From assembly GCF_045037415.1 (NCBI RefSeq), contig NZ_CP173438.1: a DNA stretch of 64,000 nt; one strand, 5' to 3'. The position numbers are program-made. Shown in pieces: positions 13,101 to 16,100 of this stretch (its first letter is position 1; each line of letters begins with the position of its first letter). Source of the stretch: Escherichia coli. GTDB lineage: Bacteria; Pseudomonadota; Gammaproteobacteria; Enterobacterales; Enterobacteriaceae.

Positions 13101-16100
13101 CTGTTATATGGCGAATGACAGCAAAGGCCATTTTGTTACGGCGAAAGAAGCAGCGAAGCACAACCGCCAGGACGTTTTGTGCTGTGTGTCCTGTGGATGC
13201 CCGTTAACACTTCAGCGGGGCAATGACGGACAACCACCGTGGTTTGAACATGACCAGATGACTGTCGCTGAGAAAATCCTGCTGCGATGCACCTGGCTTG
13301 ACCCGGCAGAGAAAGAGGCCCGTCGTTTGCATCTGCAGGGTATGACGGTTCCGGATTATACGGTGAAGGTGAGAAAGTGGTTTTGTGTGATGTGTGACGA
13401 AGATTATGAAGGAGAAAAGTGCTGCCCGAGTTGTGGTACCGGGGTATACAGCAGGGAGGGGGGGCTGCAGGAAGGCAACTGGAAGGATAGGAACTGAGCG
13501 GTTCAGTCGCGGAAATCAGTTGTAGAGCTGTAATGATATCTCCGGGAGTGCTGCGTTGGTAGGGGCATCCCGGGATAGAGAAATTTTAGCACTTTGCCCT
13601 GAATGATTGTAGACGTCCCGGGTACTCGTACCGGTCTGAGTTATTACAGTTAGATATTCACTTTTTCTCCCGCATACTTCACATCTGTCAACGACGGATG
13701 AAAAGTGGTTCTTCCGCAACCTGGGTGGAAGAAAATGGATGAAACTTTCTGGCGAACAAGGATCTAAGCTGTTTTAAGTTATGGGCAACGCAATGCACTC
13801 TCTTAAGACACTTCTACAGTTACCTTGCGGATGGCGATGCAGTCGACAAATTATTAGCTCTGACGGTATAACCCTCCATCTCCACGGAAAACGCAAAACA
13901 GCACAATGTCCTGAATGCTTTAAGCGTAGCGACTCTGTTCATAGTTGTCGTCGGCGCCGGATACAGCATCTACCCTGCTCAGGGCAGACGCTATGGCTTG
14001 TATTTTCCGTCCGCCACTGGTACTGCCGTAACCCGGCTTGTTAACGTAAAATTTTTGCCGAGTCGCTTGCTCCCTTCGCCGGTTCACACCAGCAGTCTTC
14101 ACAGGCGTTACAAAATTTACAACGTCAACTGGGATTAATAGCTGGAGGTGAGGCTGGAAAACGGGCTGCAACGGCAGCGGGTCTCCGTTGCAGTGCTGAT
14201 ACTCTTCTTCGCAGGGTTATCAATACCCCGGAGACGAAACAGTCAGGCGCGCCTCATGTCGGTATTGATGAGTGGGCGTGGCATCGGGGCCACTGCTGCG
14301 GTATGTTAATAGTCAATCTTGATACTCACCGTCCCCTCGTCCTGCTTCCCGGCCGTGATCAGCGTACGCTGGCGACCTGGTTCAGAAAATATCCGGAAAT
14401 ACAGGTTGTCTCGCGTGATCGCAGTGGAGTCTATGCGACAGCAGCACGTGAAGGTGCACCTCAGGCCAGACAGGTGGCCGATCGATGGCACCTGCTAAAA
14501 AGTATTGGTGATGAGCCTGAACGAATGATGTACAGACATATGCCTCTGATACGTCTTGTTGTCAGAGAGTTATCACTGAAGAAATCACCTGAGCCAGAAA
14601 TATCTGTGCCTGTAGCATCGCTCCGTCGTCCGGAACGCCTTAAACAGCAAACCCGCAAAAAACGGCATCAGCATTGGACAGAGGTTATGGCCCTGCATAA
14701 CAAGGGATGTAGTTTCAGGGAAATATCCCGTATTACAGGCCTGTCGCGAGTGACAGTCAGTCGCTGGGTGCGTTCAGGAACATTCCCTGAAATGTCAACC
14801 CGGCCTCCAAAGCGAGGGCTTCTGGACCCATGGAGGGAGTGGTTAAAAGAGCAACGAGAAAGTGGTAATTATAATGCCAGCCGGATATGGCGGGAAATGG
14901 TGGCCCAGGGGGGGACAGGCAGTGAAACCATCGTCAGGGATACTGTTGCCAAATGGCGTAAAGGCTGGAACCCACCGGTTACTACTGCCGCAAGACTTCC
15001 TTCAGTGTCCCGGGTAAGCCGCTGGTTGATGCCCTGGAGAATAATCAGGGGCGAAGAAAATTATGCATCCCGATTTATTAGTCTGATGTGTGAAAAAGAA
15101 CCGGAGTTGAAAATAGCACAGCAACTGGTACTCGAGTTCTACCGTATTCTGAAAACCTAAAATAAATCACAGCTAAGCAGCTGGTTCACTCGAGTTCACG
15201 AAAGCGGCTCAGCAGAACTTCGGTGCGTAGCTGCGGGGATGGAAGCTGATGCTGCGGCTATATGTGAGGCAATCAGCAGTCGCTGGAGTAATGGTGTTGT
15301 CGAAGGTCATGTAAATCGCCTGAAGGTGCTGATACGCCAGATGTATGGTCGAGCCGGATTTGAACTACTTAGGCGGAGGGTAATGAGTCCACTGGCATGA
15401 AAATCTTCACCTAGGTTGCGGAAGAGCCACTTTTGCACTGTTCGTGACAGTATGGCCTTTATGTACTCACTTTGTTACCGGTAGCTGAATCATCACTACC
15501 GTGCTGCAAATGGTGGTGAACAGCATCAATTGTGGAATGAATGTTGCCGAAGCGACCAATGCGCCTCGTTTCCACCATCAGTGGTTGCCGGACTAGCTGC
15601 GTGTTGAAAAGGGTTTAGTCCGGATACGCTCAAGCTGCTGGAAGCAAAAGGTCAGAAAGTGGCGCTGAATGAGGCGATGGGCAGCACGCAAAGCATTATG
15701 GTTGGGTCGGATGGTGAGTTGTACGGCGCATCCGACTCGCGCTTGGTGGATGATTTAACGGCGGGGTATTAATTGACATCCCCCGGCGCAGTGTGCCGGG
15801 GGATAATGGTTTTATGCGGTCAATAATCGTCCGGGATTATCGATACAGAGTTTTTTGAGGATCGTTTTATCGACGCCGCGCTCCGCCAGATAGGCCAGAA
15901 AAACATCTGGAACAAATCCCCAGCCATTACCGCCATTTTTAGCCCACATTTGTTTAAGGAAGACATCGTGGCTGAGAACAAGCTGATCGGCGTATCCCAA
16001 CTCAATGAGATGAGCGACGGCATCGGCAGTCTCCTGCACCCCTGGCGCTATTCCCTCTTTCGGGAAGGTAATGTCTAGGCCAATCATGTCGAATTCCAGC

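Follow-up and report, generated by a model that had tools for sequence, protein, structure and literature searches.

A probable ISL3 fossil nested between IS100 terminal repeats in Escherichia coli, and the IstA-type module of its transposase

A 64,000-nt stretch of Escherichia coli DNA (the window; contig NZ_CP173438.1, assembly GCF_045037415.1), to which all window coordinates refer, contains at 13686–15449 a decayed insertion sequence (IS) of two origins. It is very probably a dead, vertically inherited nested element in which an ISL3-family core of the ISEc38 type is positioned exactly between the outermost 21-bp terminal repeats (tips) of IS100, a member of the IS21 family. This estimate includes a proposed mechanism and history in which a module of the core transposase that resembles IstA of IS100 would have guided the nesting. 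ISEc38 is the name given by NCBI PGAP to intact copies of the core. The features of the nested element, and the resident IS100 that serves as the tip reference, are as follows.

5263–7129, + strand: resident IS100, tip reference; istA at 5349–6371, istB with an 87-bp deletion; 5-bp target duplication CATTG
13686–13706, + strand: left tip, IS100 outermost terminal repeat of right-end (R1) type, TGTCAACGACGGATGAAAAGT; matches the right end of the window IS100 (7109–7129) at 21/21
13707–15428, + strand: ISEc38-type ISL3 core, inactive; 95.5% identity, with no indels, to intact copies annotated as ISEc38
13707–13727, + strand: left inverted repeat of the ISL3 core, GGTTCTTCCGCAACCTGGGTG; 19/21 matches to the reverse complement of 15408–15428, GGCTCTTCCGCAACCTAGGTG
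13781–15400, + strand: transposase pseudogene, one frame, 539 codons with two nonsense codons (single-frame translation; RefSeq 'internal stop')
14042–14044, + strand: TAA at codon 88 (S88*), TCA in intact copies; specific to the window lineage
14681–14947, + strand: region coding for a putative IstA-type tandem helix-turn-helix (HTH) module (residues ~301–389) inside the DDE domain (BLASTP)
15158–15160, + strand: TAA at codon 460 (Q460*), CAA in intact copies; present in 6/6 chromosomal fossils examined
15408–15428, − strand: right inverted repeat of the ISL3 core (sequence, repeat finder and copy comparison)
15429–15449, − strand: right tip, IS100 outermost terminal repeat of left-end (L1) type, TGTCACGAACAGTGCAAAAGT on the minus strand; 19/21 identical to 5263–5283 (TGTCACGAACGGTGCAATAGT)

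Inverted repeats matching at 25 of 27 positions were identified at 13701–13727 and 15408–15434, both by reading of the sequence and with a repeat finder. They delimit a span of 1734 bp, as an earlier sequence-only reading of the window had stated. The complementarity of the two repeats extends outward to 43 nt at 79% (13685–13727 and 15408–15450), which gave the first hint that the boundaries at 13701 and 15434 were misplaced. Among independent copies, homology on both sides ends either 6 bp inside these positions (GGTTCTTCC...GGAAGAGCC, 1722 bp) or 15 bp beyond them. The true ISL3 core is 13707–15428, 1722 bp in length with GG...CC ends, and the whole tip–core–tip unit is 13686–15449, 1764 bp in length, so that the supposed 1734-bp element with 27-bp repeats is really a core between two 21-bp IS100 repeats. 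The 27-bp repeat combines 6 outer bp from the IS100 terminal repeats (AAAAGT/ACTTTT) with 21 inner bp from the ISL3 inverted repeat. The core boundaries were set by Escherichia albertii pEA26_3, in which a core of equal length forms a simple insertion with a perfect 8-bp duplication, CACTTATA.

Together with the next G, the left tip aligns with the window IS100 over 22/22 positions by blastn, and the tips of a dozen copies show the same 22/22 identity to IS100 ends. That the tips might be target DNA or a chance likeness was ruled out by the recurrence of these 21-mers at the two ends of the window IS100. Neither istA nor istB lies between the window tips, where the ISL3 gene stands alone. The inner IS100 repeats (L2/R2) are likewise absent from the window unit, which retains the outermost 21 bp per side; in IS100 the next repeat comes after GATCCAC. 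The region 13000–16000 yielded no Rfam match at gathering thresholds.

The closest intact copy, 30 residues and two stops apart from the window gene, scored 371.8 bits against the NCBIfam profile transpos_ISL3 (NF033550, cutoff 180), and the intact protein contains the Pfam domains Zn_ribbon_ISL3 (40–84) and DDE_Tnp_ISL3 (PF01610). The terminal inverted repeats of ISL3 elements are ~15–40 bp long and start with GG. The window core starts with GG, and its repeats match at 19 of 21 positions. RefSeq labels this copy 'ISL3 family transposase, internal stop'. The element is an ISL3-family member with a decayed transposase, as had been read from the sequence and as the profile score (372 bits), the Pfam domains and the RefSeq label bear out. 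Intact plasmid relatives at 95.5% identity are annotated 'ISL3-like element ISEc38 family transposase'. The likeness to ISEc38 comprises the 1722-bp length, the GG...CC inverted repeats, the single 539-codon transposase gene and the alignment without indels. The 77 differences over 1722 bp place the window copy at the borderline of the isoform threshold, which by the ISfinder convention is roughly 95% DNA identity or more. Set apart from ISEc38 by two nonsense codons and 30 missense changes, the window copy also lacks a target duplication and is chromosomally fixed. At ~4.5% divergence it represents an old sister lineage and not a recent copy. Many E. coli chromosomes carry a 100% identical copy of the element.

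Translation of 13781–15403 in one frame yielded a complete 539-codon transposase, interrupted at codons 88 and 460, with the natural TGA at 15398–15400. The first stop lies directly after the Zn_ribbon_ISL3 region and the frame is open beyond it, in agreement with the sequence-only reading. The +1 shift that had been placed near 15160 does not exist. The single-frame translation and the indel-free alignment show at this point the second TAA, a CAA to TAA change, and the intact relatives encode the transposase in one 539-codon frame and not in two. Q460* shortens the protein by 80 residues and removes the C-terminal third of the DDE domain; the conserved VVEGHVN motif (position 506) is among the residues lost. 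Relative to the consensus of 11 intact copies, the window gene carries S88*, Q460* and the 30 missense changes, with no indels, and an open reading frame of 285 codons is left at 14303–15160. S88* is not found in the fossils of O145:H28, S30, CT30 and EC17CM12. Q460*, common to diverged E. coli lineages, is the ancestral inactivating mutation and S88* a later addition in the window lineage. Today the window copy is inert, no more than a scar that offers homology for recombination.

The match of the intact protein to DDE_Tnp_ISL3 is split into residues 160–295 and 413–534, with an IstA-like segment between them. Canonical ISL3 transposases (NF033550, PF01610) share Zn_ribbon_ISL3 and DDE_Tnp_ISL3 with the ISEc38 type, and relatives of the latter give 8-bp duplications, whereas in the ISEc38 type ~118–137 extra residues split the DDE domain (505 residues over 368 profile positions). 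BLASTP aligned the window pseudogene segment (14681–14947) with residues 9–101 of the window IstA (5349–6368) at 34% identity (E 3e-13), and the ISL3 transposase segment with residues 9–101 of IS100 IstA at 33% identity (E 2e-11). The intact copy also matched IS5376 IstA in the PDB (8B4H/8Q4D; phmmer, IstA residues 10–105, E 1.5e-11) and the NCBIfam profile transpos_IS21 (profile positions 2–104, E 1.6e-16). The segment occurs in the actinobacterial relatives as well and is kept in all relatives down to 30% identity. Judged by these alignments, the ISL3 transposase is chimeric and carries a predicted IstA-type tandem-HTH module. In IS5376 IstA, HTH-1 (1–39), a minor-groove linker and HTH-2 (55–104) jointly read one terminal repeat, with catalytic IstA subunits on R1/L1 and structural subunits on R2/L2 (PMC10122671). 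Because the module is homologous to this end-reader, the transposase would hold a module that reads the type of repeat flanking its own element. A comparison for co-divergence of the module with the local IstA gave no signal, and the actinobacterial ISL3 modules are closer to IS100 IstA than to metagenomic IstAs with matching tips. In one actinobacterial relative the similarity to a metagenomic IstA reaches IstA residue ~186, inside the catalytic domain, which may be real or a generic DDE-fold likeness.

Live relatives show two signatures of mobility, GG ends with 8-bp duplications and TGT tips with 5-bp duplications. The first belongs to the core alone. In pEA26_3 the 1722-bp core is inserted in the right end of an otherwise intact IS100, with istA and istB intact, and is 100% identical to the core of a composite copy in the same strain. 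Actinobacterial relatives with plain GG ends have the 8-bp duplications GTTTTTCA, TGAATTTC and TCGCGGCG, and in Rhodococcus a simple insertion lies at the canonical position, with the spacer serving as the 8-bp duplication. The core is an autonomous ISL3 element. Its junctions in IS100 fall at 21/22, 46/47 and 55/56, each directly 5' of GATCCA, which is the inner edge of a terminal repeat. No second core is present at the opposite end of the pEA26_3 IS100. The IS100 with its ISEc38 core in pEA26_3 (NZ_CP117612.1, 92089–95772) is flanked by a 16-bp direct repeat, GGTCCCCGAACGACTG, and not by the usual 5 bp.

The second signature belongs to the 1764-bp unit, which is found with the same boundaries in many plasmids, in unrelated contexts. 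Perfect 5-bp duplications surround tip–core–tip units at 10 independent sites, from Enterobacteria to Actinobacteria: GCTCC, AGTAC, CAAAC and ACAAC in E. coli and E. albertii, GGTGC, GTTTC and TGGTG in Serratia, Tenebrionibacter and Citrobacter, and CGTGG, GACGA and GGAGT in actinobacterial relatives with only 30–35% protein identity. At the CAAAC site 174 of the 176 related plasmids have the target uninterrupted, with a single CAAAC, as direct reading of the empty junction showed. IS100-filled versions of the AGTAC and ACAAC sites were not found, which is uninformative since these flanks occur in only 1–3 plasmids. Both orientations of the core relative to the tips occur, and the composites with distinct tips in other genera share the same tip orientation (5/5). 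The two-substitution variant of the window's right tip also flanks an intact ISEc38 on plasmid NZ_LS992186. The fossil and this intact copy, at unrelated loci, thus share a tip variant derived by two substitutions from present-day IS100. IS100 is present in the same strain as a composite in E. albertii. Metagenomes were scanned with the actinobacterial tip motif and the matches classified by what lies behind the tip. At 25 loci an IstA homologue starts 66–100 nt behind the tip, followed by IstB, and at 3 loci an ISL3 core lies directly behind the 21-nt tip; two complete metagenomic IS21 elements with such tips have 5-bp duplications. The tip motif is thus a general terminal repeat of the IS21 family.

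Some copies depart from this layout. The same tip type is found on both sides of the core on a plasmid (A/A) and in chromosome EC17CM12 (B/B), and in one copy the core lies between an IS100 tip and the interior of a different IS21-like element. These copies imply recombination between cores residing in different IS21-family elements. In Candidatus Regiella insecticola, cyanobacterial and actinobacterial relatives (31–37% protein identity), a TGTC-type sequence is located 15–22 nt outside the GG at some ends, and none of these ends has a 5-bp duplication.

The fossil was found in 3389 of 5426 complete E. coli genomes (median one copy), in 2786 of them at 80% coverage or more. In about half of the complete genomes it occupies the same site, between zinc-ribbon genes and a fragment of ggt (gamma-glutamyltransferase), in a CP4-44-type island. 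The order of zinc-ribbon genes, element, ggt fragment and phosphotriesterase-like (PTE) gene also occurs in O145:H28 and other lineages. Fossils diverge from one another by 1.6%, and the ratio of nonsynonymous to synonymous substitution rates (dN/dS) of 0.54 (16.5 nonsynonymous, 9.5 synonymous) is compatible with neutral drift. Other lesions are lineage-specific and include a stop at codon 113, a frameshift and an IS2 truncation at 460 bp. K-12-like strains (E. coli HCM-26C-1) retain the first 460 bp only, cut by IS2 beside a remnant of yoeA (TonB-dependent receptor). This remnant lies between yeeX/yeeA and cobUST, in the CP4-44 island, and the ggt'-PTE module is absent there. The window copy is a vertically inherited fossil.

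No 8-bp duplication surrounds the window core (13699–13706, TGAAAAGT; 15429–15436, ACTTTTGC) and no 5-bp duplication surrounds the window unit (13681–13685, ACATC; 15450–15454, GTATG). Since ISL3 relatives do show an 8-bp duplication, its absence in the window reflects the history of this copy and not the family assignment; moreover, in a tip–core–tip copy an 8-bp duplication is not to be expected at all. The 8-mers GACGGATG and GCACTGTT, which had been taken as the flanks, do differ as read, but the argument built on their difference is invalid because both lie inside the IS100 repeats and not in target DNA. The 5–12-mers shared between 13640–13735 and 15400–15495 were listed and none abuts both ends, so that a matching repeat with shifted boundaries was not found either; a shared 6-mer arises by chance in 83% of shuffles. 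When the flanks were joined (600 + 600 bp), no adjacent placement was found in the 5,426 E. coli genomes. Comparison with related genomes thus gave no empty site, but it did identify the right flank, which abuts the IS100-type tip:

15479–15772, + strand: 3' fragment of ggt, pseudogene; 92% identity to the last ~294 bp of native E. coli ggt

RefSeq describes this fragment as missing its N-terminus, frameshifted and with an internal stop. In Salmonella bongori a homologous PfkB-GATase-DMT-PTE cluster is convergent with a neighbouring full-length ggt, which is at the native ggt-yhhA-ugpQ locus; the neighbours of the cluster are different in Klebsiella huaxiensis. An IS66 remnant borders the other side of the ggt'-PTE module. 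The E. coli ggt'-PTE-DMT-GATase-PfkB module looks like a captured chromosomal segment with the IS tip as its edge. The earlier view that a rearrangement and not a simple insertion shaped this locus therefore stands, on the missing abutting repeat, the missing empty site and the truncated ggt.

These observations can be joined in a three-step scheme. The IstA-type module would read IS21-family terminal repeats and steer the ISL3 core to the boundary just inside the repeat, which may be the reason for the core positions 21/22, 46/47 and 55/56 in IS100. The tip–core–tip unit would then be moved as a whole by an IS21-type IstA/IstB acting in trans, leaving a 5-bp duplication. The window copy would mark an IS-mediated junction of the island with the captured ggt'-PTE-DMT-GATase-PfkB segment, and as such may have lost its matching flanks or never had them. 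The clean CAAAC insertion, the derived tip variant shared by unrelated loci and the uniform tip orientation in other genera speak for mobility of the unit. Whether ISEc38-type ISL3 elements are specialised IS21 tenants, with a captured IstA module that homes to the repeat edge and units that are carried by IS21 machinery, appears about evenly balanced. On this reading the arrangement is kept from Enterobacteria (IS100) to Actinobacteria, and the window unit is one of its fossils. Several points weigh against the scheme. One core insertion is at IS100 position 33, off the repeat boundary. About half of the tip–core–tip copies, the window copy included, are without a 5-bp duplication. A part for the module in DNA binding and target choice is what we infer from its homology and from the positions of the copies. 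The unit keeps only one of the two repeats per end used by IS5376 IstA, so that its mobilisation by IstA/IstB is hypothetical. Finally, a whole IS100 that inserted and was then hollowed out would leave the same 5-bp duplications.

The last point leads to the main rival, formation in place, which we consider unlikely, although the computation did not separate it from mobility of the unit. Here IS100 inserts with its 5-bp duplication, cores enter both ends at the equivalent position, and recombination between the two cores, or intramolecular transposition, deletes the IS100 sequence in the middle. On this view the window would contain a hollowed IS100, or else the product of recombination between cores that lay in two separate IS100 copies. 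The ingredients exist, since the core moves on its own and enters IS100 ends, the single-insertion intermediate with intact istA and istB is known from pEA26_3, and the simple insertion in Rhodococcus is at the canonical position. In the core tree the architectures A/B, B/A, A/A and B/B are intermixed, which counts further against the scheme as it fits repeated re-formation or recombination, and one strain holds two identical cores, one in a composite and one in a simple insertion. However, an IS100 with two cores was never seen, and the CAAAC site, empty in 174/176 relatives, has no IS100-filled relative. The tip variant shared by the fossil and the plasmid copy at another locus is unlike present-day IS100, and the distinct-tip composites in other genera have a common tip orientation (5/5). 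Formation in place would also have to have happened anew at each of 10 or more sites, in two phyla.

It is less probable still, and in our judgement improbable, that the 21-bp TGT tips are the element's true ends, which the chimeric transposase would bind through its module, cleave and insert with a 5-bp duplication, so that the likeness to IS100 simply reflects a shared DNA-binding module. Retention of the module in all relatives down to 30% identity and the company of tips and cores across phyla agree with such ends, as do the intact transposase genes of the composites, which selection thus maintains. Yet the same transposase lineage uses GG...CC ends with 8-bp duplications, once with a 100% identical core, and it would be unusual for one enzyme to leave duplications of both 8 bp and 5 bp. 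In E. coli the tips match the two different ends of the co-resident IS100 at 21/21 and 20–21/21 positions, which indicates direct derivation from IS100, and 5 bp is the duplication length of IS100 and its relatives.

A plain 1734-bp ISL3 element with 27-bp repeats, a stop and a frameshift, whose 8-bp duplication was lost by an adjacent deletion, is very improbable and, as to frame and boundaries, refuted. Its repeats and first stop exist, the flanks are unrelated and ggt is truncated, but there is no frameshift, the mobile core in independent copies measures 1722 bp, ends in GG...CC and makes 8-bp duplications, and the extra 6 bp per side with the 15 bp beyond them are IS100 terminal repeats. 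It is scarcely credible that read-through of the stops or a domesticated truncated protein accounts for the conservation of one locus in thousands of genomes, because the 2786 copies at 80% coverage or more and the 285-codon frame at 14303–15160 are set against extra lesions that differ by lineage (stops at codons 88 and 113, a frameshift, the IS2 truncation at 460 bp), near-neutral substitutions between fossils (dN/dS 0.54), a divergence of 1.6% as expected for neutral DNA under vertical descent between E. coli lineages, and intact relatives with sense codons at both stop sites.

The nested element can be compared with several known systems. The window unit has 21 outer bp per side in common with IS100 (left R1-type, right L1-type), and the composites in relatives share the 5-bp duplication of IS100; the unit differs in having ISL3 between the tips in place of istA, istB and L2/R2, and in having no 5-bp duplication. 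Derivatives moved in trans that resemble miniature inverted-repeat transposable elements (MITEs) likewise keep only the terminal repeats of the parent and show its duplication length, whereas the cargo here is a complete autonomous IS of another family and one repeat per end is kept. IS4321 and IS5075 insert in the 38-bp repeats of Tn21-family transposons. They too are mobile elements that enter the terminal repeats of another one at a constant position, but they are of the IS1111/IS110 type, with a chemistry other than that of ISL3. We know of no captured end-binding domain in them and of no co-mobilised tip–core–tip product.

In the literature searched, ISEc38 appears solely in lists of mobile elements, and nothing was found on ISL3 elements in IS100 or IS21 ends, nor on ISL3 transposases with an IstA-like domain. 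The window locus itself is an ordinary dead IS, already annotated as a pseudogene by PGAP. Nested architecture and chimeric transposase are both real and can be reproduced across phyla, and that literature does not describe them; the functions given to them here are inferred. If correct, they provide a natural case of one IS family exploiting another for target choice and, probably, transport, which bears on how transposases gain target selectors. They also bear on how the boundaries of ISEc38-like elements are drawn in annotation (1722 versus 1764 bp, 8-bp versus 5-bp duplications) and on how IS100/ISEc38 junctions are read on plasmids with virulence or resistance genes. For the window, the frameshift stated earlier is erroneous, and there is a clear structural reason for the lack of a duplication.

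The resident IS100 of the window is 1867 bp long rather than 1954 bp and has 13 mismatches to the standard copy. The 87-bp deletion in its istB is in frame, follows position 6893 and lies between ATCTGCCGTTC direct repeats; its IstB is probably defective. This IS100 sits in a fragment of another IS21-family transposase (7130–7258). Downstream of the nested element, 15450–19900 contains the ggt fragment, the PTE gene (15812–16846), the DMT gene (16849–17814) and then the GATase and PfkB genes; the PTE of the window and that of S. bongori share 86–88% protein identity. Upstream of the element are two overlapping genes for zinc-ribbon proteins (12698–13099 and ~13087–13497). Paralogous islands share DNA with the window only to ~13472, and the 213 bp at 13473–13685 are locus-specific.

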